From the NCBI GenBank assembly GCA_964255285.1, contig CAXUUL010000071.1, positions 1 to 37,834 on the forward strand: a stretch of DNA of 37,834 bases, given 5' to 3'. This DNA comes from Ionaspis alba. Its lineage: Eukaryota. The notes under the pieces were generated by a model. That model saw only the letters and a list, made by a program, of their open reading frames with translations. It did not search any database and was not told where the DNA came from. Below are positions 2,688 to 37,834 of this stretch, piece after piece. Numbering within the stretch: position 1 is the first letter of the stretch; each line of letters opens with the position of its first letter. The translations under genes were made by a program, and so were the position numbers.

Positions 2688-4527
2688 AGTTTATAAGGTG
2701 CTGTCTGGGGAGGGGCAGAACAAAGGAGTAAAGGGACCAAGAGATGGACAGCTGAGTTGCTGGAAGAGGAAAAAGCCTCCAAGTCAAGAAAGAAAGCGGA
2801 GGGGAACTACAGTCTTCACAAGGGAGATGATCCGCTTAGGAATTTGATGGAGAGTGGGAAAAGATAATAGTGGTCTTCACCGAGGAGTTTTACTTTTTCT
2901 GTTGGGGGGATTCTTATACCAGTGGAAGCTACGTTCGTGTGCACCTATGTTGGAGTCGGGTGCACGTATTATTATTAGTTCCATTCATGTAGACAAATAG
3001 CTATCCGCAAGATTTCACGAGAAAAGTTGAGCGTGGCATCCAATCCCCAGAGATTTTCAGCAATCTAACGTTAGAGCACGGTGCGTTTGAATCGGAAGCA
3101 TTGCATTGCATTTGTGTATAGAGGGTAGTTGCTATAATGGTAGAAAGTATACATGGATTCTATTCGAGAACTTTAGTGAGTTATGGCCTAGGAAAATCGC
3201 GGCAGTATCCGGGATAGGTAGCATTTCCCCTCAGTGCCAGTGATTGAGAGGTTACACGTAAATATATATATCTGAGCTGAATAGAACCTCACCCACTCAT
3301 TCAGGACATATCTGATATGTTTTCTATACTTCATGAGTCTAGGAAGTCTTGCCTGACGAGGGAGCAACAGGAATAAGGGGAAAACCCCCTCCATCCTTGC
3401 TCGGCTGCACTGCTGCATTACGAAGTCTACTCATGTTCCACAACGAAGATTATTGTATAGCGCACGGCGCGCAAATCATGTTCTCCATAAACATTGCTCA
3501 CCCAAAGCGGCCCTTAAAGTCTGCTCGGGTGTGCCTGAATTTCTAACCACTCGATGGGTACTGTAACACCGGCAACGCGAAAGAAGAAAAACAAGGAATT
3601 GTGGTGCTCGTCTCATTCTGCATCTTGTTTAGGAAGCAACGCTCCATATCTTCAACATATACCCTTAGCGCCGGACAGCAGCAGGCAGCGGACATGGACT
3701 CCGAGACTGCCTTCAGTGCAAACATCGACACCTTCTCCAACACCTTCTCCTCCGACCGATTTAGCAGATCAACGCAAGAGTCAAGATTGGTGTGGGGCCA
3801 TTGGGCAGCAGAGTTTTGTCGATGGGCTTCCTTCCCTGCATCCGCGGCGAGCATATCCTATCAATGTCTTGAAGCTCGGATCCAAGTCGAAGCAATGTAT
3901 GAAGAGTTTTTGGTTGGCTGTACAGCCCATCCTACCAGAATTGCAGCAAGCACGAAAACACTTTAGGGTCATGCTCTTCTTCGTCCAGCTCATGCGCACA
4001 TACGCTTTGAGATCAAAATCTTTCAGCGTGCCTTTTCTGACGGATGGAAGCAGACGTCAGATTGGGATATTTGTCCTGAGATCTAGCTGTCTTCCAGTGG
4101 TTGTGATTCGCGCACTGGTGAAATCTTCTACGCATCTCTATGCCATGTATCGTTGCCGCCGCTTCTATCTTGAAAATCTGTTTTGGTTGCCCTCGACCTG
4201 ATCCGTAGAGGCGCCTCGCGATGGCCACTGCTCCGCTCATCCATAGACCCACCGCTCTTGCGTGTGCATACCCGGCTTGCATGGTGGAATGATTTCACTG
4301 AGATAATCGTCCATGGTCGCTGCTTCTCAAATTGGCCGTCACTGCTTATATGACGGCCATAATCCTACTCCTTGCGGATGTACGCTTTTGGTCCTCGATA
4401 TTGAGTGAATGACAGAATCATCAGATTCGAATCTTTCTCGAAGACGTGTTATAGCTTTGAATCGTCGCTGTACATTGATCTTGTTCCTCGTTGCATTAGC
4501 AGTGTCAAATCATCGGATTATCCAACC

Positions 4528-6614
4528 ATGACAATCCTCACAGCTTCTTCGAGCTCGCCTCCAACTGAGAAGATTTGTACTCATGTGGAGACCGTACACA
4601 GCAAAGAAAACGTGCCAGGCCAGACAGAATTCCTTGAAAAGCACGGCCTGCGGACAGATAGTGAGGATCAGGACCATAGCCTTGAGCATGAACCTAGGGT
4701 ACATCGGAGCTTACCGATTAATATAAGTTGTTCGACTGACAAGGCGCCTCATAGTTGAGTTTCAAGCGCCTGATGTCCTTGGTTGCAATGGCTTTCCTCT
4801 GGACTGGCTCTCAGATTCCAGTGTACCTCTTTGGGGCGATCCCCCCTTATATCTATGGCGACATTGGAGGCATAGATCGATGGGTGTGGTTCGTAAGTCT
4901 TGCCACATCTCTCCTGACAGGCTCAACCTAATGACTACTTCAGATATTGGCCAATCTTCTTGCTCTTGCGGCTGTCTGCCCTTTTGTGGGATCACTGTCC
5001 GATTTACTGGGACGACGTTACGTTGCCATCTTTGGCGCTTCCTTTATCGTCCTTGGTATGATCTTGTGCTCGACCGCGCACGAGATGAACACCTTCATCG
5101 GTGGGTCTCTCGTTCCTTGTAGAACCAGACCGGAATCTTACTGATAGGACGACAGTCGGTATGGTGTTTGCTGGTATTGGTGCTGGTGTTAATGAGCTCA
5201 CGGCGTTGGCGGTAACTTCAGAACTTGCACCGGCGAGCAAGCGAGGGAAATACGTGGCAATCTTAATATTCACGATACTTCCCTTCTGCCCCTCTGTCCT
5301 CTGGGGTCAGCTCATTGCATTTCATGCCGGATGGAGATACTGTGGACTTCTGTGTGGGGTTTGGGCAGCCGTGGGTCTTTTCTTGACCATCTTCTTCTAT
5401 TTCCCTCCACCAAGGGCCAATTCCACGGGCTTGACCAGAAAGGAGATCGTTGGCCAGATCGACTTCTTGGGAGGATTCCTGAGTGTAGTCGGTATCCTCC
5501 TATTCATCTGCGCCTTACAATGGGGAGGCTACCAGGTTTGTCAAACAAATCGTCCTTCCTTCCGCTGAAACACAGGACTTATACGGGACTAGTACGCTTG
5601 GTCATCTGCCCACGTTCTTGCTCCTCTCCTCCTTGGAATTTTCTTGCTCCTCGCTTTCGTGGTATGGGAATTCAAGATCGCCAAATTTCCCATGTTCCCA
5701 AGGCGTCTCGGACAAGCTCCCAGAACATTAGCTTTAACTTTACTGATCACCTTCATTTCTGGAGCCAATTTCTTCTCTATCCTCATGTTCTGGCCGACAC
5801 AAGCCTTCAATGTCTACGGCCATGATCCTGTGGGGCTTGGCATTCGCGGCCTTCCAGTGGCCTTCAGTATACTAGCAGGTGCCTGCGTTGTACTCTGGCT
5901 ATTGAGTGTTTGTCGCGGGCGTAATAAAGAACTCATGATTGCGTCCTCCGTGCTAATGACGGCTGGTATGGCTATGAAACCATCCCTATCCAATGCAATA
6001 TGCTTATACATATGTAGGATGCGGCTCTCTAGCCGTAGCACGAGCTGACAACTTATATGTCCTCTGGGGTCTATTGGTCCTTGGGGGGCTTGGAATTGGT
6101 GGAATTGTCGTTCCAGCCTCGATTATCACGATCATCATATGTCCAGACGTTAGTCGAATCATTCTCCTTCCCAGTCGTTATATACTGACATGGTACTTAG
6201 GACTTGATTGCAACAATTGGAGCGCTCACCTTGGCCATTCGAGTCATTGGAGGTAGCATTGGCTACGCAGTATACTACAACGTGTTCGTCAATAAATTCG
6301 TGACCAACGCTCTGCTCTATATTGGTAGTGCAATGGCCGTCGAACTCAATATCACAAACGAGACCTCCATCATGGAAGCGATCGTGCTTACGGGGGCCTC
6401 ACAGCTCGAGGAACTCAGAATGATTCCAGGCATTGGGCAGAACGATACGGCTTATGCTATCGTGGTGGAGGCTGGGCAGATAGCTTTTGCCGAGAGCTAC
6501 AAGTATATCTATCTTACGAGTATTGCGTTTGGCGTGGTAAGTATCCTTGCCGCTTGCTTCCTCGGCGATATCAATAGTTTCATGGACGATCATGTGGCAG
6601 TCGTGATGCACTGA
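4528..6614 (+). CDS. MFS transporter, TRI12 (fungal trichothecene efflux pump)-like DHA2/14-TM family, about 587 aa
   Basis: Exons 4528-4698, 4755-4892, 4944-5100, 5156-5535, 5593-5965, 6018-6148, 6201-6614; total 1764 nt. MFS motif A (GSLSDLLGRRY), GVNELTALAVTSELAPASKRG, FYFPPPR, IDFLGGFLS, QWGGYQYAWSSAHVL and many TM segments. Confidence 0.9.
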
Positions 6615-8187: not shown

Positions 8188-8865
8188 GATACTGCAGTGA
8201 CTCAACGGGGAGGCTCGCCACGAGTACTGCGGTATTTGCAAGCTTAGGTGGTAAGTAGTTGATATTAGAGGTCAGGAATGGGTCATGATAGTTGCCCATC
8301 GTTCAATATGTAAGGCCTCCCATGTCCTAGCAGGGATTAGGGCTGCGAGTACCTTGTCGGAGGATCATCGACAATTACATATCTGCGATGTAAGCATGTC
8401 TGAGCCGTGGATTTGAAACCTGAGCAATCAACATTCAAGATTTTGTTATCCAACGGTGGCAGCAAGCCAATGTTCGTCCTCTACCAAACGTCGTTTTCCT
8501 TCTTGGGAAACAGACGCTGCTCCTTTAGGATTATTGATTGATCAATCAAGCTTACCGATTTACTTCGAGCTTCCTGCGGGATTCGTTGAGATGGGTTTTC
8601 GCTCTCCCTCTGTCTCTGGTTCTGATCCTGTGGACGAGGCTGCGCTGCTTAGAAATACTGGCGTTGCTAGGACTACCCCTTTCATCCATCTATAAAAGAA
8701 TGGCTACGCCGTAAATCCCACTTGCTCCGCTCGACTCGTGCACACTTCGATTTCACTTGTCTGCTTCTTCCTAGACCTATTCTATTGTTGCCTTCTCTCT
8801 GTTCTCAACACGTTTTCCTTGACACCTTTAGGATATCACGAACATAGCCTTCGCGGAGCCTCGCA

Positions 8866-9828
8866 ATGCTGATCCCCTCTTTCACTAAAACATACCATCA
8901 TGATGTCTATCCTGCCATAGACGCCCATCGCCCACAGCTGTCTGCCAGCGGCAAAACTGTTCTGGTCACAGGTGCTGGCCAAGGCATTGGAGCTGCTATC
9001 ACAAACAACTTCGCCCTTGCTGGTGCCGCCAATCTCGTCATTCTCGGTCGAAACTCCGAGACCCTCAACGCCGTGAAGTCAAAGGTCGAAAGCGGCAAGG
9101 ACAGCACGTCCAAAGTCCACGTTTATCAGGCCGATATCACGGATGAGAGTAGGATCAACCAAGTCTTCGCAGACGTTGTGAACAAGATCGGTCCGGTGGA
9201 CATTTGCATTGCCAATGCGGGATACCTTCCTTCTCCTGGACCAATCGCCAAATGCTCGGTCGAGGAATTCTGGCGTGGCTACGAGATCAATGTCAAAGGC
9301 GCATTCATTGTCACCAAAGCCTTTCTCCGAGCTGCATCCGCAAACCCAACTCTCATCAATATTTCGAGTGGTGCCGCTTTAGCGCAATACGCAGGTCCTT
9401 TCTCAAGCTACTCGGGCAGCAAGGCAGGGGAAGTGCGCCTAATGGATAGCGTCGCCGCTGAATGCCCTCATGTGAGGGTTTTCAATGTCCAACCAGGCTT
9501 TATTGCGACAGCCATGGGTGAAAAATCTGGGATCAATGTCTCACCATTTGATAGTGGTGAGTCAAATTTGGTTTGACTAGCCCTGTTTTGGCGGTTTGGC
9601 TTACTGTATCTTCTAGTCAACTTACCTGCTGGATTCTGCTTGTGGCTTGCCAGTTCCGAAGGAGAGTTCTTGCGTGGGAGGTTTGTGAATGCAAATTGGG
9701 ACGTGGATGAAATGAAGGCGATGAAGGAGGAGATCGTCAACAACCCACAGCTTTTGACTTTGAATATCACAGGGTTTCCTTTTAAGTATACTACGGAGAT
9801 CAAGGTCGGAGCAGAGATTCAGGGTTAG
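8866..9828 (+). CDS. Classical short-chain dehydrogenase/reductase (NAD(P)-binding), about 300 aa
   Basis: Exons 8866-9556 and 9617-9828 (intron GTGAGT...CTAG). Motifs TGAGQGIG, IANAG, catalytic S and YSGSK, NVQPGFIAT, and C-terminal WLASSEGEFLRGRFVNANWDVDEM. Confidence 0.92.
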
Positions 9829-12263: not shown

Positions 12264-13454
12264 TCACAGGTGCTTGTGGCTTAACGAAGCAGTTAGCTAT
12301 GCAATATATGGTGACAAAGCTATGGTAGACTCACAAGAACTCGAGCACAATCTTGTATCCTCGCTCATACTCTGAACGAACCCTATCATCCTTGAGATCG
12401 CCACTACAAGTCATTAGCAGGGACCGCTGTTATCAAAGCCTACTCTTACCGGGCAGCCATCCAACCCTGTGAGACATTTGTCAGTAACATATGGATGACA
12501 CGTGGATCGGATGCGCTAGCTCACATGGACCTGATCCGAGAAGGTCTCAACGTGGTGATCCGCCGTCAATCTCTGCTCGAACGCCTTGACTGCATCGGCA
12601 TCTTCGCCCTGAGACGCCAGCATACAGAGTGGAATCTTGATTTTCTTGGCGTCTTCGGGATCGACCATTGCTGGGTGGACTTCGCAGACTGCGGAAAAAG
12701 GAGTATCGGACTGGGAAGTCAAAGAGACCATCTATACTCCACGCGTCAATCTACCGTTCATGTCGATGAAAGGGGTCCTCAGGAACGGTCCGGACAGGAA
12801 AGGATTCGACAGACCTTCCCACCCCAGCACATTCCGATCGCACCCCAGTTTCTGATCGTCCCGTTACTCTTCTCCTGTATCTCTTTGACAACCTTCAATA
12901 TCCTCGGCACGTTCTTTGGAGGCGCGGCTTTGGTGGAGAAGAACTGGCCGAGCTTTTCGCCCTTTTCCTTTGTGTCTGGAGGATACCAAGAGTGGTCGGC
13001 TGGCTCTCCTTCGAAGAAATCGGGCACGAAGACTTGGTATTGGTGTTGCTTGTCATCGGCGTGCGAGATGATGTCGGCGCCCTGTATTCGTCAGGAACGG
13101 ATCTGCAGTGCGCACATAGGTATGGCAGAGGGAGAAAGCGAAGATGTACCTGGAGTGTTTGAGGGCTGAAGCCGAAGATGTCATAGACAACGAGGATGGC
13201 AGTTGTTGCTGTTGAAGGGCCAGTCTTGTCTGCAAAGAAGCTCAGTTAGTGGGCGAGTACTGGATAACGAAGTCAGGGCCGATTGGACATACACGTCTTC
13301 AAACCATCAACTTCAATGAAGCTGCCCTTCTCTTTGTAATCTGCGTCTGCTGGGGGAACCGAGCAACATGCCTAAGAAGTGTGAGCTTAATTCCGGCTGT
13401 GTAAATGACGCTAAGCGGGTGTATGTGTACTTCGCTTTGTACGTGCGGTGCCAT
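12264..13454 (-). CDS. Dienelactone hydrolase family alpha/beta hydrolase (AIM2-like), about 252 aa
   Basis: Exons on the minus strand: 13454-13431, 13371-13293, 13229-13150, 13081-12815, 12731-12525, 12466-12450, 12403-12335, 12279-12264; total 759 nt. Motifs SEACCSVPP, YDIFG, PDFF, nucleophile GMCWGG, HPAM, catalytic His in QVHGWMAARGDL, and C-terminus FFHKHL. Confidence 0.9.
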
Positions 13455-14803: not shown

Positions 14804-16547
14804 TTACACAGTTTCGATGTACCTTCGGACCTCCCTAGCCTATCGGTCAGTATGATAAAAGTCACCTAGAGTGCTGCTACTTACCAGTCGGTCACAGCTT
14901 CGTCCCACAGACGTATTTCATGCTCCCGGGTACCTCCATAATGATCCACGAACTCGTCTCCAAACACCTTCCTCGCCACACTCTCCTTGCGCATGAAGGT
15001 AGCTGTCGCTTCTTTCAAGGACTTAGCGAGTCTCACACCCTTGTCCGATGCACCTCCCACATCCTCGCCTTTACCAAGCGGAGGAACTCTAATTTCCATC
15101 TTGTTCTCGACACCTCTCCATCCGAGAGCCAAGATGGCCGCTAGTACGAGGAACGGATTGGCATCTGCGCCTCCGACCCGAACTTCAAACCTAGTAGCTT
15201 TAGGACTTGAGGTCGGAGGTGCGATGAGGCGGATGGAAGCTGCCCGATGCTCCAAGCCCCATGATACCGTTACAGGCGCCCAGAAATTCTCGACAAGCCG
15301 CTTGTACGAATTGACCGTTGGAGCGACGATTGGCATTATGTCAGGAAGTCCGTCGAGCAGACCAGCCAGGAAGTGGCGTCCCATATCCGCGAGGTTTGCA
15401 AGATCTGGGTACTTGGCATTGTCGTCTTTGGATTCCCGATAGAAGAGGTTCTTGCCTGACTTGTCCGCGATTGAAACGTGCATATGACCTGAATTCCCTG
15501 GAAGGCCTTCTCGAGGTTTCGCCATGAAACAGGGCGTGATGCCAAACTGACTACCCACTGACTTGACAACATACCTAGGACAAGCAGGAGGATGATTAGC
15601 AGACTTGCACTGGTCCGAGTTAAAGGTTGGATCGAGGATCACCGACTTGAAAAGACTCGCTTTATCGGCCATCTGCTTGATCTCTCCAAATTCAAGCGCC
15701 TACGGCCCGAATTGATTAGGACACGTGGGGGCAAACTCAACTTGATCGTCTGATATGGTTCCTTACAGCTTCGTAAACGCCAGGTCCACTCTCCGTATGC
15801 CAGCCTTCGATACCGCACCGGAATTTTTCACAAGCATCGAATATGCCATAATAGTACTCCTTGTTATGGACAGGTCGTGTCAAGCTGTATCCGAACATGC
15901 CCTCCGTCAAGGGAGGGAGTGAGTTGACGGGATTCTCCTTCAAAAAAGTAGCCGTGGCTGAGGAGTTGCGCTCGCTCGAAGACGCGTTCGTAGTGCTTGG
16001 TGCACGAAATTGGTAGAATTCATACTCGGCTAATTCGTCGCCAAAGTGGTCAGTTCTCATGGCCCAACGAGGGTGTTGTCCCCACAAAGGTGCATCATGT
16101 AGAAGACTCACCTCCCGCCATTGCGCTCAAACCTTGCTTCTCCATCTTTTCGGCAGCGGTCTTTAGCAATCCTCTTGGACATGCACTGACAGGGTCGTTG
16201 GTCTCTGGATCGAAGAAGGAAAGGAGAAAGAAGGGAACGTCTTCTTCCCAAGGTATTCTCCGAAAGGTGCTGAGGTCGGGGATAGCAATGATGTCCCTGT
16301 ATCCATTCTCCTTGTTGCTGATCTTCAACTCCTTGAAATATGTCTGATCATGCATGTCCCAGCCAAAGATGACCGAACAGAAGCCAAAGCCCTTCTCGAC
16401 AATGCCCAAGAACTTCTTCTTCGCCATGAGCTTGCCGCGTAGGATGCCATCGACATCGATTCCCGCGACTTTGACCTTTGTGTCTTTTTCTAGGAGCTTT
16501 GGAAGTGATTCGATGGTGACATTGACAACCGCGTCTGAGGCGGGCAT
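14804..16547 (-). CDS. Glutamine synthetase-like (GSI-type) gamma-glutamyl-amine ligase, GlnA4/PuuA-like, about 490 aa
   Basis: Exons 16547-16112, 16029-15767, 15699-15647, 15574-14885, 14834-14804; total 1473 nt. Motifs DVDGILRGK, CPRGLLK, AEYEF, HTESGPGVYE, FMAKP..GNSGHMHVS, NSYKRL, RFEVRVGGADANPFL and VTDWEVRRY. Confidence 0.92.
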
Positions 16548-17531
16548 TGCGAGAGGCGCGTCGTCGTTGAGCTACTGTGTGCGAGAAGGGAGATACCCGC
16601 GAACGCCTCGTTGTCCACGAAGCAGTGGCTTACGCGCAGACTCGTGGGAGTGACTGGAGTTCTTGACTGACCTCGCCAAAGCTGCGATAGTGTTTCGGAG
16701 ATACTCGTGCAGCTCGAAGCGGGCCATGATCGGCGCTTATCGAGCCACCCCTGCTCGCAAGGCCACGGGCGGCTTGAAGGACGATCCCCCGGCGATAGAC
16801 CGCTAAGTCCTTCGGGCAGATTCCCGGCTTTTCACTCTCCCATATTCAGATTCGACGCAGGCAATATGCGCATATCCTAGCCTCACGCTCTGTCGATGGT
16901 GTCACAATGCAGCTGTTAAATGTAGGCATGTAGGTATCAATCATCTCTTGTCCGAAGTTCTCGTAACTGGCTATTGTTAGCTGTTAGCTCAATCACCGGT
17001 AGATAGTCATGGGTCGTGTTTCCGGACACGATAAGGTAATAAGAACAAGGGGGCTCCGTCTTCGCACCCAGCCTCAACGCTCCAACAGATTACTCACACT
17101 GCCAATTACGAAAGATGTTAGCTAACAAAGCTGCAACTTTTTTCATTTAAGACTTGGACAGCTTGCATCATCCTCCGTCATCTTCGCTCATCACTCATCA
17201 ACTCATCACTTCTCATCATCTTGTTCCTTTATTCCCTTCAGCATCACCTGTGCCTTCGAAGCTTTCAACAAGCAACCAAGGCGCGTCATTCCCCAATCCA
17301 CCAGCATTCGCCAGTACCCGATCCTGTTACTGCAAGGGATCGTCTTTCTTATCTCACCGCAATCCGTATTAGAAGCATACTAGGGCCCACCAGGAAAACT
17401 AACATCTCTGGTATTGACAGAATTCCACGACTTCGACAATCTCCTACATTTCATCTTTCTCTGCTCTCTGTTTCTCTCTCTTGTGTTTGCGGCTAGACAT
17501 TCTTGTTTGAGCAATCTTGCAAACGGTATCA
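16548..17531. promoter_or_regulatory. Bidirectional intergenic promoter with HGATAR (AreA/NIT2-type GATA) sites
   Basis: 984 bp between the divergent ATGs at 16547 and 17532. GATAAG cores at 16736-16741 (minus strand), 17030-17035 (plus) and 17348-17353 (minus), and AGATAG at 17001-17006. Confidence 0.5.
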
Positions 17532-18768
17532 ATGAAGATGGGTAGCTTGGGACGAATGGGTCGTTTGGAGGGTAAGAATGCCATCATCACTGGCGGTGCA
17601 GGGTGAGTGAACTTGGGCCGCTCTCTCGAGGACTTCGGTCTATGCATCATACTATTTCTTTCAAACGTCGTCACGCAATCCTGTCTATGAGGCACTGCTT
17701 TTCACTCAACTTCAGCGTTGAAGCCGATGCTTTCATTGCCAGAGTGTTCACGATTTTGTATCGACGTTGTTTCTGCATATGATGACATGCAATTCGCTGT
17801 ACTCTTCGTATTGCGTTTTGAAGCGTTCACTACTGAATATTCGTTTTTCATTTCAGTGGCATTGGCCTCGAAACAACCATTCTATTCCTTCGCGAAGGCG
17901 CATCTGTTCTTATGGCAGACATCTCTGAAATAGCTCTGGCCAAGGCGGCTGCCAAGATCAAGCAGCTGATGCCGTACCACGGCCGATTGGAGACCTTTAA
18001 ATGTGACGTCTCCAAGGAATCGGATGTCGAGGCTATGGTTCTACATCTCGACTCATGGGGTGGCGTGGATATCGTTTTCAATAATGCTGGTATTATGCAC
18101 GCCGATGATGCTGATGCTGTTGATACTCCCGAAAAGATTTGGGATTTGACCCAGAACATCAATGTCAAGGGTGTTTGGTTTGGTAGCAAGCATGCTGTGC
18201 TCAGCATGCGGAGGCACAAGAAGGACAGAGGTAGCATCATCAACACGGCCAGTGTGGTCGCACTTGTCGGTAGTGCTACTCCCCAGCTGGCCTACACGGC
18301 AAGCAAGGGTGCTGTCTTAGCCATCACTCGCGAGCTGGCAATCGTTCACGCAAGAGAGGGATTCCGCTTCAACGCCTTGTGTCCCGCGCCGCTCAAGTAA
18401 GTGCATCACCTCCGCCCCCCCTCGTGACTTCCGATCTGATCTCGTGGCACTTGCAGTACAGCGCTTCTCCAGGATTGGCTCGGAGACGATGCAGCTAAGC
18501 GTCACCGTCGCGAGATTCACTTCCCGACCGGGCGTTTCGGAGAAGCTATTGAGCAAGCTCAAGCAGTACTCTTCCTCGCGAGCGACGAGAGCAGCTTCGT
18601 CAACGGTACGGACTTTGTTGTCGATGGCGGTATGACTAAGGTAAGTTTTCACGACTCGTCCCGTGCTAAAATCCGCCATACTGACACCCTGATAAGGCAT
18701 ATGTCACACCAGAAGGCCCGTCCACTCAACCACCGCTGAATTATGCGCAGGATAAGTATCATTACTAG
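17532..18768 (+). CDS. Short-chain dehydrogenase/reductase, similar to the SDR of actinobacterial glnA4 operons, about 288 aa
   Basis: Exons 17532-17602, 17857-18396, 18457-18640, 18697-18768; total 867 nt. Motifs GRLEGKNAIITGGAGGIG, FNNAG, GSIINTAS, YTASKG, NALCPAPLNT, GRFGE and VLFLASDESSFVNGTDFVVDGGMTKAYVTPE. The start could be any of three in-frame ATGs in exon 1. Confidence 0.92.
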
Positions 18769-20234: not shown

Positions 20235-22373
20235 TCAAAGATTGCAGATGCCCGATGACTTCAACTCCGATAGAGGACAGAAAATCTACGACAGTTAGCT
20301 AATAGCATTTAAATTCGATGGTATTGTATTTACTCTAGGTTCACCGCGTGTAATATCGACGGGGAGATTACCGGAGGCCTCCACCGTCACATTGTTGCAA
20401 GTCAAAATCTCCACCAGCGATTGGTTAGCCGCATAACCTGAGTTAGAGACAGCCAAGGTATAGTTGGCACTATTGGATCCAGAGTTCGAGAACACACTGA
20501 CAAGCTTGCCTTTGCGCAAGGCAATATTGTGATGATCCGAGTAGATTGGGGTGGACTTGTATGTCAGATAGTCGGGAGACTTGTAGATCTCTTGATTCCG
20601 AATTTGGTTGACTGAGCCGATAAAGCCATAGAGACTCGATTTTGTGGAGTAATCGCTCAGCCAAATGGCTTCCCGATTTTCTGGATCGCTACCACCGAAA
20701 TAACGTTGTTCTTGACCTTGGTAGATGATGGGGATGCCGTCCGACATAAGGGTGAAGGCAATGACATTCTTGTCAAGGGAGATATCACTGGTTGAGGATG
20801 GAAAGCGAGGTTGATCATGGTTCTCGGAAAAGGTGCCCAGAAGAGTAGAATCTTTGCATTTCGATTTGATGGCACTGATTGTCGAGCTCAGCGCGTTCAG
20901 ATCGCCAGTCGAATTCTGAAAGCCGCTGGTAAGAGCAAACCATAGCGGGTAGTTCAAAACACCGTCGAGGACATCCTGATACGGGCAAACATAAGACGGA
21001 TCGCCATCAAGGACCTCGCCCAAGGAAAAGATACCAGCCGCCTTGTTGAAACCAGGCCAGAACTCTTTCTGAACATGTTTCACGGTATCAATGCGAAGGC
21101 CGTCAATGGCAAATGTGGCTGCGAGAGATTTCACCCAGCTGTAGTATGTGTCAATTACAAATTGATTGGTCGTGTCAACATCAACTAGAGAGACGGCCCT
21201 AAGGAGAATGTCAGCGATTTGCCAATTAGTTCCAGCTCAAATTTCAGTTACCTGTCGCCTAGCCAGCACTATGCCACACGTCAATGATTGATACAGAAAG
21301 GTGATGTAGGAAGACACTCACATTCTCAACTCTAGTCTGGTTAGACGTGTAGTCCTCGGGATTGATTGGACAGTAAGGGTGAAACTCCGAGGATTTATTG
21401 AACGGATAGAAAGTCGAATAATCGACTGTAGTAGCATCTCCTGCCCATCCAAAATGATTGACCACAATATCGACCATCAGTAACATATCCCTAGAATGGA
21501 GAGCGGTCGACAGCGCCTGTAGGTCGGCAGCTATACCGAAGTTCGGATTGAGATCGTAAAGACTAGTTTGCCAATATCCGTGATAGCTAAATCCGTCACT
21601 TGTGTTTTGGGGGAGGTTCAAGGTGACAGGTGAAATCCAGATGGCCGTGAAGCCCATGTTCTGGATGTAGTCGAGGTTGTTGATAATGCCTTGCCAGCCA
21701 CCCCCACAGTATGTTCTAGACTTTGGATCACAAGGTGCAGTCGAGGATTTATCAGAACGTCCAAATCGATCAGTCAAAATCTGGTATATAGCCTTGCTTC
21801 TCCATTGCGCGGGTGTAGCACTGGATTTGACCAGCGACGTTGAAGCATTGAAAGGAGTTCCGGTGTGGCTTGGCGACGATGTCTGCATTGCTGAAGGAGC
21901 GGGCGGCGCTGGGGAGGTGCTGGTTTGTGCTGCTGCACTACACGATAAATCAAGTCGGCGTGACTTCAATATTGGCAGGGTGGCTTCCTCCACATACTCT
22001 ACCTGATGTCTTCTGGTTGCTCCAATACCACCACCAACCGCAACAGCGATGATAACGGCGAGAACGACGAGACCAATCAATAGCCAACGTCTTCGGCTCC
22101 ATGCTCGTCTATCACGGACTTGACCATGTACCTGCTTCTCTTCCCCGTAACGGGACTGGTTCTCAGCCTTCTCGAGTCCAGGGGACTCAACCTCATCGTT
22201 GGCTGGTGGAAGTTTGCGGTCGTAAGGGTGATCGCTCGTAGGAGCAACTTCCAGACCATTCGAAACGTAGAATTCTGGAGCCTGACTCGATCTAGGCTTT
22301 TGAAAGTCTCAGCACCGCCTTGATCAGGAAGGAAGCAGCTTCTTACAGTGGAGGGCAGCGATTTTTCCGCCAT
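20235..22373 (-). CDS. GH13 (subfamily 1-type) alpha-amylase with N-terminal cytosolic tail, TM anchor and Ser/Thr/Pro stem, about 624 aa
   Basis: Exons 22373-22347, 22296-21998, 21937-21322, 21268-21252, 21198-20334, 20285-20235; total 1875 nt (the first two junctions are less certain). Taka-amylase-like motifs [28 protein letters not shown] and DIVVNH; intact catalytic triad in [16 protein letters not shown] and FSENHD; C-terminal GIC. Confidence 0.9.
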
Positions 22374-28100: not shown

Positions 28101-28421
28101 AGATGCTCAGGGAATTCCGAGGTATACGGTAAGTTACATAAAGCCCCCGCTGCTGCCAGGGGGGGAGGTTGCATTATTATTATGGTTGTGCTGACGCTGC
28201 GCCGCCAACATTAGGTATCTCATTTCCCTCTGGTCCAGGCCATTGTTCCGCTTTGTTGTGAAGGAAGCATGTCCGCTCATGGAGCTTGCCTCACACTCCC
28301 AACATCGGGTTTCGGTATTGACCGCAGCAACAGCAACAACAATAGCAGAACTAGCAAAGATCTGCTGCTGAGGTTGGTGCACCACCCATCTAGGCCCAAC
28401 AAGCCAACGTGTTCGCCTCCG

Positions 28422-31400
28422 ATGGCCTCCAGCCTGCAACATTCTTTGTCATCGACGCGGTCCTTTCTGTCGAGGACCAGTAAGATGAGAGGTCATCGAA
28501 AAGAGAAGAGTCGGGATTCGATTGCATCGATTAGACAAGCTGAAGCCGTCCCAATCGAAGCCCTATGGACCGAAGGAAAGCAGGTCGTGTTTGACGGAAA
28601 ACCAGTCGCCATCCAAGCAACACAAGTCGGTGGCGAAGGCAAGCAGGTCGTGGAAGGGAAACAGATTGTCGCGGGAGTAAAAGTTCCAGTCTCAGAAATT
28701 GCGACTACAACGTCCAAGGAGCTTCACTTCGATTCGCTCGACGTTGAAAATCCCGAAAAGATTGCAGAGATTATGGAGGACGCAGTCAAGGCAGACAACG
28801 TGTTCCAAGGGCTTCCAGAATGTCGCATGGACGGTGTCTCAAGTGAAAGCTTGATCGATCACGACTTCATGCAAAGGGCGTTTGGCATTACGATGGATCC
28901 AAAGACTAGTTTCGTGGACCTGCCACAGTCAAATTCTCATACAGACACGGGTCTAAAGACCCTGACAGAGCCGGACAATGATGTTTTCGAAATGTATGTT
29001 CCGCTACAACTGGCCAAGGATCGGAGACCTGAGCTACAAGTCTCCATCCCCAATCGAAAGACACACTCGACAACTTCACCATCAAACAAAGTGGCAAGTC
29101 GATCTGGCAGGCCGCAGCAGGAGACACCGTTCACTGTGTCGCCACCTTCGACATGCACGACAGCACGACATAACAAGCCTTTCAATGGTCTGGCAACAGC
29201 GAGACTCTCGATAGTATCCCCTCTATCTGTCGTGGAAATGCCCAAACCGAGGAGACCTTTCTCAGCTTTGTCTCTTGAAGAACTCACTGCCGATCTTCCC
29301 GTCAGCAATGCGCCCGGGTCAAAATCAGCGACATCGAATTCTTCCGACGACACCAGAAGCAAGTCTTCGAGCGGACGCAGCCCGCGATCCTCGATGTCGA
29401 GTGTCAACTCCGACCGAGCCACAGTCAGGAAATCAAAAGAAAACCTCGATGGTGGTGCTCTTGGGAATTCTACGAAGCCATCCTCGGTGCTGCCATGCAC
29501 TAATGCAGGTGCTCCGGGTCATGGGACTTTAGCGCCCAGGTCGAAGAACATGAGCAGTACCCCATCCCTCCTCAGTAGTATGCCCTCACCAATCAAACCT
29601 CCCCTCCGGAGCAAAGCCAGTTACACTTCAATTCGCAGTACTGTCAGCACGATCAACAAAAATAAACCATTACCGCCGGAGCCGGGCTTGACCAACATCG
29701 CACCTCTCAATGTTGCCAACCAATCGCCGTCACGATCGAGCACCATGACTGTACGCCAACGTTTGCCACACTCGCAGCAAGCTCAGTACGGCGATGAGCC
29801 TCCAGCTGTAGCGCTTAATATTTCGAGACATGCCTCGACGAGATCCACGACCCTGCGCTCAAAATACACACCAAAAGACCTGGATGCTCTCGACGATGCC
29901 TTTCAAAAGACTGTGCCAACCAGGATCCCTTCCGCATTTTCCTATTCCAACAATTCGACACCCACTCTGAGCCAGGTCACTCTGGCACTGGAAACCCAGC
30001 TCGACACCATTACAGAAGACTCTCCCAATAATTCCATGGTCATACAAATGGTCAACGATCCTCTTCAAATCAGTCGCGGACCAATGCGCATGGAACCTTC
30101 GCGTAGACCTCCACCACCACCCTGCTGTACTGGATCGCCAGCCCAAGACAGACCCGAGACAAGGAGGAGACTCATGAAGCGCTCGGCCAGTAGCAATCAT
30201 GTGATCACACAAATGCGGTCGCATGATGGAGCCCCAAGGAGGCGTGCTTCAACGAATGTGGTCGGTTCCAGTAGCAAGGCGAACAAAATATTGGGCAAAA
30301 CGGGAGGATACGTAACTCCAGTCCGTATGGAACGCAAAAGCAGTATGGATTCGAATTGGAGTTCCGGAGATTCACCTGAGATGTATACCGACACCACAAG
30401 CCCTGCCATGTCGATCGACGACAGCCACACACCAGAGAGTGAACTGTCCTCTATTCCCGATGCTCATTTTGAAGAGATTCGGAAAAGACTTGAGCTACTC
30501 AGTCCGAAAGAGGATCCTTCCCAAACCTTCCTCGCCTTTCACACGCAAAATCTTTCTCGTTCGTCCGAAAAGTATCTCGATGAGATCAAGGTGATCCCAT
30601 CCACGGTGCAGAAGTCGATAAGTGACTTCAAGGGGAAGAAGCTACACGAACACATTGTTGAGCTTGAGGCCAATCGAAGTCCTTCCCCTGTCGAACTCGA
30701 GGACACGCAACGGATTCTACCAATTGAAATGGGACTTCCCAGCCCATTGCCCGTCCTCGATGCCTCTACCGCCGAGAAAGATATCCATCCTCTGACCCGA
30801 AAAAATGACACGCTTTCTCCACAATCTGCAACCCAGCTGTCGAACCAGGCACTTAAGAGCCGATCATTAAATGCGTCACAGCGATCGGTCAAAGCACGGT
30901 CATTGGCATCTCTTGCCATGTCAGAGATCCCAGATCTCTATGCTGCGATACCCTCGCCGCCTGAGAGTCGAATCAGGCCTTCGATGACTGCTGAAGAGGT
31001 TGAGCAGTTGATATCCGCCGATGCTGCCGAGCGTGTCTTGCTCAGAATACTCCAAAGTCTTGACAACCTGAAAGACCTCTTTGCAGCTGCCGAGGTCAGT
31101 CGTGGTTTTTACCGTACCTTCAAGCGACACGAACTATCACTTATCAAGAATGCCTTATGGTGCATGTCACCCGCCGCCTGGGAACTTCGCCAAATGAGTA
31201 TTCCATTCGCAGACCTCGAGGATGGTGCTCGTGACTACAAACCGAGAATGTACTTGCAGCATTACATTAGGGATTTGCTGACAATGGTGAAATTGAAAAC
31301 AATGATTTTAGATCACTGCAAAACATTCCTTCGACCCGAGACTATCTCCGGTCTTGCAGGCGAGACTGATAGATCTCCAATCATTGACGATGCTTTCTGG

Positions 31401-32741
31401 CGTGTCTGGACTTTCTGTCGGATATTCGGGTGTGGCGAAGGACGAGAGCACGACATTGTTGGCCAGATGGATTGGTTGAAGGGTGGTGTACTGGCGAAAC
31501 AGCAGAGTACCGACACCGGCACACTTGCAATGAATGATGGGGTTTCCCTAAACTCGGTCCTGTTCAATCCACCGGCAGGCTTCGCAAGGGGGAATGGAAG
31601 TGGTCTGAGCGCGGAAGAGCTTTACGATATGACAGAGATCTGGACTTGTCTTGGTGTTTTGGTTCGCGGCTATCAGGGTAAACGACAGGAAGCGAGAGAG
31701 TTTGGCGTTTTCGACGGTACAGACATTGCCGTGGGTGATGTGAAGAACGAAAACGTTGCTCTTGGTAAGTTCCATCCTCTGGAGGCCGTCGCAATGCATA
31801 CTGATCTTCCAATAGAGGAATGGACACACTATCTCCTCAGCCTTGCTCCTTCAGCTATTTTAGATGTCACCTCTGCCGCAACACCGACACAGGCAACCTT
31901 TGCCCAGGTTCGGTCTCAAGGCTACACGTCATGGAAGATGCCATCACAAGGTGCATCACGCTCGACTTTCCTGAAGGAAGCCGTTACCAGAGTCTATGAA
32001 GAGAAGATGGCTCTCCACCGACCGTCGGCCTCAGGATCACCGAACGGTTTCTCCGCTCTCCCCCAAGTCGCCCCCACCACTCCACAACCTTCGTCACCAG
32101 AGAATACCGATGAGGTTTTTGCCTCCCGTCAGCGGCGCGCTGTGCACGCAGCTGAACTCCGCGCGAAGAAACAAGACCCCAACTACAAAGATGTGCCGAT
32201 ATCAGAGGAAAGGCCAATGAGCAATTACCCCGACGTTCTGGCCCGTCTCGAAGCCCAAGGCATATCCACCGGCAATGCTCCACCGGTACCCAAAATGCCA
32301 AGCCTGGCATCCCGTTTCTCCCTCCGACGACCTAAAGTCACCGTCACCTCACCTTCGAGTTCGAAGAGCTCCCCTAAACCTGGTTCCCCTGCAAGCCCTA
32401 CAGCATCCCCCTCCCGCCAGCAGAAGACTGCTCGTCATCCTACAACCTCTCAAGAACGCCTCGTTGGTCACGTTCCAAGTGCAAGTGTCTCACAAGAAAA
32501 ATTGCCTCTCCATCCCCATACTCAACCATTACCCACAATTCCGACAGGCCCTCAAGTGCGGGATCCGGTTGATGTGGCGGTGGAGAGGCTTACGCAGATG
32601 GGCTTCGAGACGTCGAGAGCAAAGAAGGCACTGGCAGAGACGGATAGTGGAAATAGTGTTGATTTCGGACGTGCGGTCAGTATGTTGATCAAGGAGAGGG
32701 AGAGGAAGAAGTGTTTGGGGAGGTTGGATAGAATGGGTTAG
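28422..32741 (+). CDS. Large Ser/Pro-rich protein with an internal F-box-like segment and a C-terminal UBA domain, about 1422 aa
   Basis: 1490-codon ORF from 28269; the start could be 28269 or 28422. Probable in-frame 51-nt intron at 31765-31815 (GTAAGT..ACTGAT..TAG). Conserved-looking core AAERVLLRILQSLDNLKDLFAAAEVSRGFY...IDDAFWRVWTFCRIFGCG...ELYDMTEIWTCL. C-terminal VERLTQMGFETSRAKKAL...RAVSML carries the UBA MGF motif. Confidence 0.85.
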   Translation: MASSLQHSLSSTRSFLSRTSKMRGHRKEKSRDSIASIRQAEAVPIEALWTEGKQVVFDGKPVAIQATQVGGEGKQVVEGKQIVAGVKVPVSEIATTTSKELHFDSLDVENPEKIAEIMEDAVKADNVFQGLPECRMDGVSSESLIDHDFMQRAFGITMDPKTSFVDLPQSNSHTDTGLKTLTEPDNDVFEMYVPLQLAKDRRPELQVSIPNRKTHSTTSPSNKVASRSGRPQQETPFTVSPPSTCTTARHNKPFNGLATARLSIVSPLSVVEMPKPRRPFSALSLEELTADLPVSNAPGSKSATSNSSDDTRSKSSSGRSPRSSMSSVNSDRATVRKSKENLDGGALGNSTKPSSVLPCTNAGAPGHGTLAPRSKNMSSTPSLLSSMPSPIKPPLRSKASYTSIRSTVSTINKNKPLPPEPGLTNIAPLNVANQSPSRSSTMTVRQRLPHSQQAQYGDEPPAVALNISRHASTRSTTLRSKYTPKDLDALDDAFQKTVPTRIPSAFSYSNNSTPTLSQVTLALETQLDTITEDSPNNSMVIQMVNDPLQISRGPMRMEPSRRPPPPPCCTGSPAQDRPETRRRLMKRSASSNHVITQMRSHDGAPRRRASTNVVGSSSKANKILGKTGGYVTPVRMERKSSMDSNWSSGDSPEMYTDTTSPAMSIDDSHTPESELSSIPDAHFEEIRKRLELLSPKEDPSQTFLAFHTQNLSRSSEKYLDEIKVIPSTVQKSISDFKGKKLHEHIVELEANRSPSPVELEDTQRILPIEMGLPSPLPVLDASTAEKDIHPLTRKNDTLSPQSATQLSNQALKSRSLNASQRSVKARSLASLAMSEIPDLYAAIPSPPESRIRPSMTAEEVEQLISADAAERVLLRILQSLDNLKDLFAAAEVSRGFYRTFKRHELSLIKNALWCMSPAAWELRQMSIPFADLEDGARDYKPRMYLQHYIRDLLTMVKLKTMILDHCKTFLRPETISGLAGETDRSPIIDDAFWRVWTFCRIFGCGEGREHDIVGQMDWLKGGVLAKQQSTDTGTLAMNDGVSLNSVLFNPPAGFARGNGSGLSAEELYDMTEIWTCLGVLVRGYQGKRQEAREFGVFDGTDIAVGDVKNENVALGKFHPLEAVAMHTDLPIEEWTHYLLSLAPSAILDVTSAATPTQATFAQVRSQGYTSWKMPSQGASRSTFLKEAVTRVYEEKMALHRPSASGSPNGFSALPQVAPTTPQPSSPENTDEVFASRQRRAVHAAELRAKKQDPNYKDVPISEERPMSNYPDVLARLEAQGISTGNAPPVPKMPSLASRFSLRRPKVTVTSPSSSKSSPKPGSPASPTASPSRQQKTARHPTTSQERLVGHVPSASVSQEKLPLHPHTQPLPTIPTGPQVRDPVDVAVERLTQMGFETSRAKKALAETDSGNSVDFGRAVSMLIKERERKKCLGRLDRMG

Positions 32742-35544: not shown

Positions 35545-37427
35545 TCAGCGTCGCGGAGTTTCGTCTTCCTCCTCCTCGTCATCGTCATTATTGCTCTCGC
35601 TGCCTTCCTCTTCGTCCCACCCTTCCGCTTCCAGACCTTCACCACGAATACCAAAGCTCCCAACGAAACCAATGAATGCTATCCCGCCAAAGACGCCAAA
35701 GGCAAGAGCTTCACCTTTTGGTCTAACATGAGTAGCAATGGAAAAAAGACCACCTGAGACAAAGGGACCGGCGGCTCGACCGGCCGCTGACAGCGTTTGA
35801 GCGAGGCCATTGAGTGTGCCAAGAACAGAGTGATTGGACGCCGAGTTTGTGATCTGCGTTCTATTAGCTCAACTATGTAATGAAGATAGAAGTTGAATAG
35901 AGAGAGAAAGGAGAAATGGCGGGGGTATCGGGGGCAGGGGGAAAGCGAAGAGCGTGAGAATGAGAGAAGTCTCACGAGTAGAAGAGCACTGGTCAATCCA
36001 CCGACAGCAGCGATCGTCTTTACCAGCAATACAATCCCGAGCTCAATCCATAACCATATTTTACCAGTCGAGATGCCTCCAATCCCGTTTGCGGCGTTTT
36101 TATAACCTACCCATGGCGTCATGAGGAATGCTACAACAAACCCTCCCAATCCCACGCGGTAAGTCGTCTTATTCCCCATCTTCTCCCGCAGCTTTCCAAA
36201 GATGCCGACCTGAAATATGATCGTTACAATTCCTGCAAAAGCTAGAGACAACCCAATCTCTTTAGGTGAGAGGTTTCGTCCAGTCGGTGTTGGTGCCTGA
36301 GCAAAGATGGGGTAGAGATTGTTGTAGGAGATGTTCGAGAGCTGAAAAACCAGATAGGTAGTCAAGAGAATGATCGTATCTCTATTCAGCACCTCCTTTC
36401 GAGTAAGATTAGTGGTATGATGTGGTAGGAGTGTAGGCATCGACCCTTGCGACGTAGTATCAGAATCCGAATCATCCTCCTCATCCTCGTCGAATGCTGC
36501 ATCATCCTGGACATGTGATGATTCTCGATGATCACGACGATGCTTGTGGCTCCGCAGATAGCTTGGCCGGGTTGAACTTGCAAATTGCCAAACCCTGCTA
36601 AACAAATTGCCCATTCGCTTGCCCAGGGGCTGTAAATGCTGTGCTTCCTCCAAACTTTCTTCTAGGTAGATCATCGTGACCAGAAGCTCAAGGACTAGCA
36701 CGAAGGCAGACACCAGATTGGGCCGCAGGTAAGGATAAGCACTTCGATATGATCCATTGGCATCTTTCGCATTCGACACAAGCAGACCTCCCACAATAGG
36801 TCCAGTAATGCCACCAAGACCATATATGACAGGCAGGTATGTGAATGCCTTTGACTGATTACTGCGGTCCGTTATCTCCCCCAAGCACGTCGATACAACT
36901 CCTTGGTTTCCATTGACCAGACCCATGAACGCCTGCACCAACACAGCTTGCCACAGCGTCCTGCAGAATCCAAACATGACGAAACCTACTGCCGTAAGTA
37001 ATGTTCCAACAAGTATCACCGGCTTTCGTCCGATCCTGTCTGAGAGCCAACCCCAGAAGAAGTTTGTGGCAAATTGAGCGAGAGCGAAGGAAGACGCAAT
37101 GGTGCCAACGTAGACGCCGACCTGGCCGGGGTCAACTTCGGGGAAGGACGAGGCCATCTCGGGAAGATAAGGGCTTATGGAGTTCAGTGCTGTTTGTTCG
37201 CAGAGGGCGATAAAGGCGAGCGTGAAGAGTTGTCGCTTTGGCAGCGGAGACTCGTTATGCTCGGAGGCATTCGACTCAGGATGAGGAGGTCCTCTACCAT
37301 CGTTGGACGAGGGAGGAGAGCGCGATGGAGGTCGACCTTTGGATTTGGGTGGAGGAGTGGGAAATGTCTGGTAGTGCGGCGTTGAGGACTTCCGTCGGTC
37401 TGCGGGCAACGGTCTGGAGAGCTTCAT
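35545..37427 (-). CDS. MFS transporter, 12-TM DHA1-type (YCR023C / ZIF-like), about 586 aa
   Basis: Exons 37427-35976 and 35853-35545; total 1761 nt. Motifs SPLPKRQL, SISPYLPEM, motif A WGWLSDRIGRKPV, GLVNGNQGVVSTCLGEITD and GPIVGG; acidic central loop; LGTLNGLAQTLSAAGRAAGP; acidic tail. Confidence 0.9.
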
Positions 37428-37834
37428 CGCAACAAGGTAGCGTTGAAAGGCAGAGAAAATGTGATTTGAAGATGCTTGTGTCTCGAAAACGGATCGAGAT
37501 GACCCTTCGGCCACGAATCTCCAGCTTCCAACCTTTCGATCCAAGTGCGGCAGTCCATTTACCCTCTTGTGACACTTGCCAGGTCCGCAATCATTCTTTG
37601 ACCAAGCGTATCAAGCCCAAGGCTCCGTGGGACGTCGAGGTAATTGTGTCAGCAGCAAAACTAGACCATTGTAGCGCTCCACTCTCTCCGGTCACACAGG
37701 AAAATTGCACGGTAGGAATCTCACTTCGGACGCGCACGATACACTTCTTTGGATTTCAAGTAGGAAAAATCGGCATTACGTCGGCATGCTCTTCGCTCGG
37801 GCATCTGCGCTAGTGGCCAACCAGGTCTGGCTAG

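Follow-up and report, generated by a model that had tools for sequence, protein, structure and literature searches.

Ethanolamine is freed from phosphatidylethanolamine where membranes decay, and bacteria use it through either a B12-dependent lyase or gamma-glutamylation. For fungi, a literature search with most subscription journals outside its reach gave no description of a route for ethanolamine use, and none of a gamma-glutamyl amine pathway. Here we analyse a head-to-head gene pair on contig CAXUUL010000071.1 (assembly GCA_964255285.1) of Ionaspis alba, the whole 37,834-nt stretch being referred to as the window. One gene encodes a glutamine synthetase (GS)-like ligase and the other a short-chain dehydrogenase/reductase (SDR). 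We give a probability of roughly 0.6 to the reading that the pair is a co-regulated module for the catabolism of an amino alcohol, most likely ethanolamine, which would first be glutamylated and then oxidized.

The described systems that come closest are bacterial. In the Puu pathway of Escherichia coli, the ligase PuuA, the aldehyde dehydrogenase (ALDH) PuuC and the C26 hydrolase PuuD follow the same logic of GS-like ligase, ALDH and C26 hydrolase as the pathway proposed here, although the substrate is putrescine and an amine oxidase stands in place of an alcohol dehydrogenase. The ethanolamine cluster SCO1610-SCO1615 of Streptomyces coelicolor comprises GlnA4 (SCO1613), an SDR (SCO1611), an ALDH (SCO1612) and an amidohydrolase (SCO1615), and its proposed chemistry, like ours, runs from glutamylation of ethanolamine through a short-chain dehydrogenase and an ALDH to a hydrolase (PMC6529630). 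The operon of Chromohalobacter salexigens, Agrobacterium and Phaeobacter MED193, encoding ETAGA, GETADH, GAADDH and GGAH, has the same proposed pathway, with uptake through a TRAP transporter as a difference; growth on phosphatidylethanolamine induces proteins of this gamma-glutamylation operon, whose transporter binds ethanolamine (PMC10132767). A fitness preprint on Pseudomonas putida, in which ethanolamine is used via the lyase route, has no bearing on the fungal pair. Gamma-glutamylation is a pathway known from bacteria, and the fungal pair is assigned from its sequence as a probable variant, which differs from the S. coelicolor cluster in having intron-bearing and divergently transcribed genes.

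An earlier note on this DNA had described a GS-like gene and an SDR gene diverging from a shared 984-bp region, and spliced gene models reproduced both the coordinates and the spacer (Table 1); the two SDR peptide strings quoted in that note were likewise found in the window translation. Both models aligned end to end with annotated fungal orthologs, at 86% identity over 481 residues for the ligase and 90% over 281 residues for the SDR. The second Met of the SDR model is the start in the annotated orthologs, and with that start the spacer would be 6 bases longer (990 bp). In the proposed pathway, the ligase would use ATP to couple the gamma-carboxyl group of glutamate to the amino group of an amino alcohol, ethanolamine being the most likely one, to yield gamma-glutamylethanolamide, and the SDR would oxidize the free alcohol of this amide to the aldehyde in an NAD-dependent reaction. 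An ALDH would then convert the aldehyde to gamma-glutamylglycine, from which a hydrolase would release glutamate and glycine. These later enzymes would be encoded elsewhere in the genome, possibly in part by an adjacent gene of the dienelactone hydrolase (DLH) family. Sequence and genomic context are the basis on which we infer the substrate, the order and direction of the reactions, the co-regulation via the spacer and which enzymes act later.

The SDR exons matched Pfam adh_short (2.6e-34) and adh_short_C2, and the protein carries the classical motifs T-G-G-A-G-G-I-G, F-N-N-A-G, N-T-A-S and Y-T-A-S-K. Beta-strand 2 ends in an Asp, the pattern of NAD-preferring SDRs, so that NAD use would fit. 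NF004713 (PRK06057) was the best NCBIfam family, three full-length fungal orthologs scoring 269.0, 270.7 and 278.5 bits as compared with 206-211 bits for the next-best family, about 60 lower; the exons of the window SDR scored 156.5 and 64.9 bits against the same model. Three signatures (Q-x-x-Y-T-A-S-K-G, R-R-x-x-H-x-P-x-G-R and a C-terminal A-Y-V-T-P), which the earlier note had named as traits of SDRs from glnA4 operons, are present in the window protein; they were shared by all five fungal and all ten actinobacterial GS-operon SDRs aligned, missing from the five other SDRs aligned, and altered in the single proteobacterial GS-linked row. In a careful tree (LG+C20+F+G4 with posterior mean site frequencies (PMSF); ultrafast bootstrap (UFBoot)/Shimodaira-Hasegawa-like approximate likelihood ratio test (SH-aLRT) support), built from 8 fungal, 21 GS-operon and 6 other SDR rows, the fungal and GS-operon SDRs formed one clade against the other SDRs (99/91). 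This clade places the fungal SDR with SDRs of the S. coelicolor operon layout, with which it has the signature motifs in common, and its predicted membership in the GS-operon SDR family is firm. In a quick tree, the fungal SDRs had branched within the actinobacterial ones, next to two of their rows (98). The careful tree leaves this inner order open, and an approximately unbiased (AU) test did not reject monophyly of the 20 actinobacterial rows (p=0.088); with the nesting lost and this p value, we do not claim a gene transfer of the SDR from actinobacteria.

The close relatives of this SDR are concentrated in Actinomycetota, where one fungal query found matches at E<=1e-55 in 80 of 301 sampled genomes (including three flagged as unpublished, G093, G125 and G179), against 1 of 301 in Pseudomonadota. 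NF004713 was matched above its cut-off in 46 of the 301 Actinomycetota genomes, while none of five genomes carrying the type of ligase that is associated with iron-containing alcohol dehydrogenase (Fe-ADH; see below) and none of 14 control genomes reached it. We examined 60 actinobacterial SDR loci over 8 kb on each side, a first set of 40 and a second set of 20 with the closest SDRs. These SDRs are 42-57% identical to the window SDR, and the best SDRs of five other genomes 33-38%. A GS-like ligase gene lay within 8 kb in 56 of the 60 loci (38/40 and 18/20 in the two sets), three of the exceptions being at a contig edge and one a second SDR copy. Within the same distance an ALDH was present in 36/40 and 17/20 loci and a permease in 22/40 and 10/20. 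Most often the genes are arranged as permease, ligase, C26, ALDH and SDR. In one locus from a 9.2-Mb genome (L123) they run from SDR through ALDH to ligase, with C26 divergent, an order that matches the SCO1611-SCO1615 layout (PMC6529630). At the sole proteobacterial match (L240, Table 1), the GS-like gene and the SDR diverge like the fungal pair, and a C26 is nearby; the ligase of this locus forms a long branch outside both operon clades. The nearest bacterial SDRs do lie in glnA4-type operons, with a GS-like gene close by at 56 actinobacterial loci and also at the proteobacterial match, and this was a point on which the earlier note had thought its reading could fail. As a separate observation, C26 is rare in the loci whose SDRs are nearest to the fungal ones (L241-L260; 4/20 within 8 kb versus 31/40 in the NF004713 core set), a scarcity that brings to mind the fungal loci, where none was found.

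The ligase belongs to the GS superfamily by its GSI-type catalytic domain, exon 4 matching Pfam Gln-synt_C (PF00120) at E 3.6e-59 and 201 bits, the gathering score being 24. Its N-terminal 145 residues match the GS N-domains of gamma-glutamyl ligases, and a search of solved structures with the N-terminal domain gave PDB 5dm3 as the best match (5.8e-09). We take this structure to be the C. salexigens pathway enzyme, which would be a further likeness to the ETAGA-type operon; by eye, its aligned segment is nearer to the GlnA4-type rows than to the fungal rows. An ESM Atlas search returned only 'glutamine synthetase' clusters, from ascomycetes and Pseudomonadota. When the window ligase and its relatives were aligned with the GlnA paralogs of five bacterial genomes, the metal, ATP and glutamate motifs were found to be kept (E-x-E strand, H-x-E...E, G-x-H-x-H, N-S-Y-K-R, R-x-x-x-x-R and R-x-E-x-R), the residue roles being assigned after enteric GS numbering. 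At the flap, the GlnA rows read F/Y-E-A-P and the window ligase N-F-W-A-P, so that Glu is replaced by Trp; the fungal and Fe-ADH-operon rows all have Trp here, and the GlnA4-type rows either Phe or Trp. The replaced residue is the flap glutamate (Glu327 in enteric GS numbering), which shields the intermediate and deprotonates ammonium. The same Glu-to-Trp substitution has been described for gamma-glutamyl ligases that do not make glutamine and for FluG (PMC6478659). At the position of Asp50, which comes from the neighbouring subunit, the N-terminal region is gapped in the alignment, and a by-eye match before G-W puts a Phe there, an insecure placement.

Most database records annotate the protein as 'glutamine synthetase', and the best NCBIfam match of exon 4 is GlnA, as would be expected if the ligase were a second true glutamine synthetase assimilating ammonium. 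The scores argue against this: exon 4, which covers 229 of the 490 residues, reached 149.7 bits with the GlnA model TIGR00653, and a full-length bacterial sister ligase 229 bits, under a cut-off of 429.15. A PuuA-type model gave 113 bits on exon 4 (cut-off 650), and the ligase is far below all NCBIfam equivalog cut-offs. In a GS-family tree of 62 rows (IQ-TREE, LG+G4, short search, SH-aLRT support, rooted on GlnA), the eight fungal rows were monophyletic (99), with the bacterial Fe-ADH-operon clade (94) as their sister group and a support of 100 for the two together. This union was in turn sister to the actinobacterial SDR-operon clade (100), the two being joined at 97. Other GS-like paralogs fell outside, and the window ligase lay outside the GlnA clade. 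Given the flap Trp, the GlnA score under the cut-off and the position in the tree, the ligase is predicted to be of the gamma-glutamyl-amine ligase type and not a glutamine synthetase, and a role in ammonium assimilation appears highly improbable. A preference for ammonium was among the outcomes that would have spoken against the earlier note, and the lost flap glutamate gives no sign of it.

The bacterial sister clade supplied a second operon context. Scanning one genome per prokaryote species with a five-row query alignment gave 80 loci, whose ligases (from Bacteroidota, Burkholderiales, Bdellovibrionota and others) are the nearest bacterial ones and are 40-45% identical to the fungal protein. 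Pfam searches of the neighbours at 11 loci showed a recurrent order of amino-acid permease, ligase, Fe-ADH, Peptidase_C26 and ALDH, and by tblastn the 66 loci with at least 4 kb downstream included 48 with Fe-ADH, 44 with Peptidase_C26, 46 with ALDH and 43 with all three. The permease adjoining the ligase passed the TIGR00908 ethanolamine-permease equivalog in the three loci tested (414-445 bits versus 381.75); a separate, non-adjacent permease at another locus (L032) gave no TIGR00908 match. Such a layout would be expected for glutamylation of an amino alcohol, oxidation of the alcohol and of the aldehyde, and hydrolysis, and the transporter would indicate ethanolamine. These operons hold the closest non-fungal relatives of the fungal ligase, in its sister clade and with Trp at the flap; they differ from the fungal pair in that the alcohol step would be carried out by Fe-ADH and not by an SDR, a case of non-orthologous displacement inside one pathway. 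Two members of the same ligase clade in Bacteroidota (L010 and L043, Table 1) stand without Fe-ADH, C26 or ALDH, and have downstream a gene of 345-349 aa and a haloacid dehalogenase (HAD)-family hydrolase and upstream a GSII-like or GSIII gene.

Since the ligase is sister to the Fe-ADH-operon clade and the SDR falls in the GlnA4-operon SDR clade, the fungal pair appears to combine parts whose closest relatives lie in two bacterial operon types, and it may exemplify such a combination by a eukaryote. The view of the pair as parts of a glnA4-type pathway therefore needs dividing: it holds for the SDR, by operon context and by the clade, and does not hold for the ligase, the sister group of which is the Fe-ADH clade and not GlnA4. 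The fungal ligase is 30-37% identical to the ligases of operons of the S. coelicolor layout and stands outside their clade, the equivalence with the SCO genes being drawn through operon layout. Because the nearest bacterial relatives of the two proteins give independent operon context, the pathway proposed in the earlier note, with the ligase and the SDR as its first two steps, is supported.

Both proteins are 80-90% conserved across Pezizomycotina. A search with ligase exon 4 gave 77-90% identity in Lecanoromycetes, Dothideomycetes, Leotiomycetes, Sordariomycetes and others, and a second search found the ligase in Thermoascus, Rasamsonia, Talaromyces, Paecilomyces, Aspergillus, Exophiala, Malbranchea, Neurospora, Pyricularia and Verticillium. 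Among 1.84 billion cluster representatives, the family was met at 56% identity in Glomeromycota, 45% in Saccharomycotina and 40-49% in chytrids, the first bacteria appearing near 40%; by these matches the ligase family is pan-fungal. The SDR is 80-92% identical across the same Pezizomycotina range, including Penicillium, Aspergillus, Blastomyces and Cladosporium.

For synteny, metagenome contigs were scanned with the fungal ligase, giving 80 loci (66 distinct at 97% nucleotide identity), of which 34 were informative, that is, distinct and with at least 2.5 kb upstream of the ligase; an SDR of at least 60% identity was counted as an ortholog. The SDR was found beside the ligase in 27 of these 34 loci, in 23 of them divergent, at 0.9-2.3 kb from the ligase, and in four upstream on the same strand; a partial SDR was also present on 11 shorter loci. 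Consecutive locus tags or accessions for the two genes were found in Xylographa carneopallida, Agyrium rufum and Cirrosporium novae-zelandiae, and consecutive identifiers in Talaromyces stipitatus (EED19640/EED19641), T. atroroseus (UA08_01668/01669) and several Paecilomyces variotii strains. The pairing is kept across fungal classes in which the ligases are only about 60-80% identical. Since it recurs in 27 of 34 contigs and in six named species, the adjacency of ligase and SDR is not due to chance, and conservation of the pairing in other fungi, which had been set beforehand as a test, was borne out. In four lichen-fungus gene predictions (P0015, P0021, P0044 and P0058) the ligase is merged with its neighbours, with Chs5/BRCT-type domains upstream and DLH downstream; the likely cause is run-through in the annotation, and not true fusion.

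Candidate genes for the later steps were found beside the pair (Table 1). An orthologous ALDH abuts the pair in six fungal loci, five of them distinct at 97% nucleotide identity, in three different arrangements and with 64-94% mutual identity. The best NCBIfam family of these ALDHs is NF006916, as for the ALDH of the Fe-ADH operons, while the actinobacterial operon ALDH is nearest to NF010000; they presumably resemble the yeast Msc7-type ALDH. Among 30 distinct fungal loci of at least 8 kb, the ALDH is present in five and missing from 25. The latter figure matches what would be seen if the SDR acted on a secondary alcohol, which would need no ALDH, and it is one reason to consider that the same pathway logic serves another substrate, for instance 1-amino-2-propanol, 3-aminopropanol, a different small amino alcohol or an amine of xenobiotic origin, and that ethanolamine is no more than a side substrate. 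Related clades contain GS-like ligases that accept polyamines, anilines, naphthylamine and catecholamines (PMC6478659), and all four GS isoforms of Mycobacterium tuberculosis, of which GS4 has been placed near eukaryotic GS, are active on several amines (PMC13740247). The permease next to the nearest bacterial ligases, with its ethanolamine-permease match at all three loci tested, argues for ethanolamine instead, as do the GlnA4-type operons, which have been linked to it experimentally in S. coelicolor and Phaeobacter (PMC6529630, PMC10132767). We consider a different substrate possible and the foremost alternative to the ethanolamine module, with clearly less than even odds.

The other candidate is the DLH-family gene in the window itself, which shares the strand of the ligase, looks complete and begins some 1.4 kb downstream. 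It was delimited by tblastn with the C-terminal parts of the fused Teloschistaceae predictions P0044 and P0015, in which DLH is joined to the ligase. Of the 29 distinct fungal loci with at least 2.5 kb of downstream sequence, 4 have a DLH gene as the next gene after the ligase, and of the 30 long loci 7 have one anywhere; none was found in the 141 bacterial loci searched. The window DLH would represent either lineage synteny or a replacement hydrolase, the latter being possible. More tentatively, Pezizomycotina may hold a mosaic pathway made up of an ancient, pan-fungal ligase of the Fe-ADH lineage, an SDR of the GlnA4-operon type (a possible transfer), an NF006916-like ALDH in some lineages and a Cys-type DLH, instead of Peptidase_C26, that would release glutamate; we hold this composite picture to be rather doubtful as a whole.

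Table 1. Positions of the gene pair, of candidate later-step genes and of other features. Positions without a prefix refer to the window; those with an L prefix refer to the locus named.
Feature	Position	Strand	Description
GS-like ligase gene	14804..16547	minus	5 exons, 490 aa; gene model, GT..AG introns throughout
Ligase exons	16547-16112, 16029-15767, 15699-15647, 15574-14885, 14834-14804	minus	Coding sequence 1473 nt
SDR gene	17532..18768	plus	4 exons, 288 aa; classical NAD-type SDR, predicted gamma-glutamyl-amino-alcohol dehydrogenase
SDR exons	17532-17602, 17857-18396, 18457-18640, 18697-18768	plus	Coding sequence 867 nt
Divergent spacer between ligase and SDR	16548..17531	none	984 bp, ATG to ATG
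DLH-family gene	12334-13371	minus	tblastn segments, first exon outside the model; G-M-C-W-G-G motif in gene
DLH exon	12797-13087		Pfam PF01738, 1.5e-05
Fungal ALDH convergent with ligase	L182:11769-13715, L184:11768-13587, L191:5704-7408
Fungal ALDH beside SDR	L190:5490-7150, L192:1-1008, L212:3223-5095
Proteobacterial GS-like gene and SDR	L240:6305-10768		Divergent, C26 nearby
Bacteroidota loci of the ligase clade	L010:8113-13699, L043:7263-13453		Without Fe-ADH, C26 or ALDH
Major facilitator superfamily (MFS) transporter fragments, TRI12-like	4405-6614	plus	Other window gene, no link to the pair
Second SDR, unrelated to the paired SDR	8848-9576	plus	Other window gene, no link to the pair
Alpha-amylase	20295-22308	minus	Other window gene, no link to the pair
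1508-aa open reading frame, weak UBA-like end	28215-32741	plus	Other window gene, no link to the pair
MFS transporter	35679-37610	minus	Other window gene, no link to the pair

Several observations weigh against the reading of the pair as an ethanolamine-type catabolic module. The 37,834-nt window holds no ALDH, C26 hydrolase, class I amidotransferase or ethanolamine-type permease (for the ALDH and the amidotransferase the earlier note had stated as much), and it differs from the S. coelicolor cluster in this lack of clustered ALDH, C26 hydrolase and permease and of a regulator. A linked ALDH or amidotransferase in other fungi had been suggested as a check; the ALDH was found, as described above, while bacterial queries detected neither C26 nor a permease in any of the 80 fungal loci. 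The fungal SDRs score below the equivalog cut-off of NF004713 (404 bits), and in the GS tree the fungal ligase is not inside the 19-row SDR-operon (GlnA4-type) clade. Its nearest bacterial counterparts have no SDR partner, any SDR match within 10 kb being restricted to 2 of the 80 loci at about 33% identity, and therefore the fungal combination of ligase and SDR is without an exact bacterial model. No characterised member of the Fe-ADH-operon ligase clade was met, although no search was aimed at that operon type.

The pairing itself has exceptions that count on the same side. An SDR ortholog was not seen nearby in 7 of the 34 informative fungal loci (L179, counted among the seven, carries a divergent SDR that is 56% identical), and in Dothideomycetidae sp. 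11243 the two genes are present and not adjacent. These gaps, together with the consideration that conserved microsynteny alone is no proof of common function, would suit two genes that are neighbours by descent only, sharing a spacer and serving unrelated processes. Against this, the same two families are linked independently in the 56 of 60 actinobacterial loci and in the one proteobacterial locus, the pairing persists across classes despite the divergence of the ligases, and the orthologous ALDH joins the pair in three arrangements. We regard mere neighbourhood by descent as quite improbable.

The remaining difficulty for the catabolic module concerns the fungal proteins with GSI-type domains that have been studied genetically. 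FluG, FlrA of Beauveria bassiana and MoGln3 of Magnaporthe resemble the window ligase in being ascomycete proteins with such domains and without a glutamine-synthetase role (PMC6478659, PMC9426541, PMC8229676), and FluG has the flap Trp in addition (PMC6478659). Knockouts of the GS-only 'FluG-like' gene of Beauveria and of MoGLN3 gave stress or virulence phenotypes or no phenotype, and no defect in amine use is reported (PMC9426541, PMC8229676); FlrA and MoGln3 are treated as regulators there, and would bear on the window ligase if they are its orthologs. The pair might accordingly make a gamma-glutamylated signalling, developmental or protective metabolite, as proposed for FluG, whose GS-like region, required for development, is held to produce some gamma-glutamyl compound not yet named (PMC6478659). 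The Beauveria knockouts altered stress tolerance, virulence and more than 1,000 transcripts (PMC9426541), and conservation of 80-90% across classes is high for a dispensable catabolic gene. However, both proteins have their nearest bacterial relatives in operons that also encode a permease, an ALDH and a hydrolase, a layout of the catabolic kind. FluG also differs in its N-terminal amidohydrolase domain; Pfam detected no such domain in the 490-residue ligase, which is thus no FluG-type Amidohydro_2 fusion, and the comparison with FlrA would hold only if FlrA is an ortholog. A metabolite of this kind seems unlikely as the product of the pair.

If the two genes do form a module for ethanolamine, a conserved two-gene unit of Pezizomycotina, present in a range that takes in Aspergillus, Talaromyces, Neurospora, Pyricularia, Botrytis and many lichen fungi, would fill a gap in fungal ethanolamine use. 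It would also give an enzymatic function to fungal GSI-like proteins that are now annotated as 'glutamine synthetase' or as FluG-like regulators, and, if the mosaic pathway were true, a first biochemical role to the GS-only 'FluG-like' fungal proteins.

The shared spacer was compared with those of 23 other divergent fungal loci, which measure 631-1931 bp. The most frequent k-mers of the 24 spacers came from the SDR first exon and its splice donor, and were rejected as an artefact of the approximate boundaries. Beyond these, only words containing GATA stood out; one of them, the octamer C-G-A-T-A-A-G-A, occurred in 9 of the 24 spacers, as compared with a maximum of 8 after shuffling, a control that was not matched for composition. 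HGATAR sites were present at 6.1 per kb in the window spacer versus 2.5 per kb window-wide, which is a weak control given the unmatched base composition. Across the divergent spacers they reached 5.4 per kb versus 2.1 per kb across the loci, about 2.5-fold and again with composition unmatched. This excess of HGATAR sites would fit AreA/Nit2-type nitrogen control of the pair.

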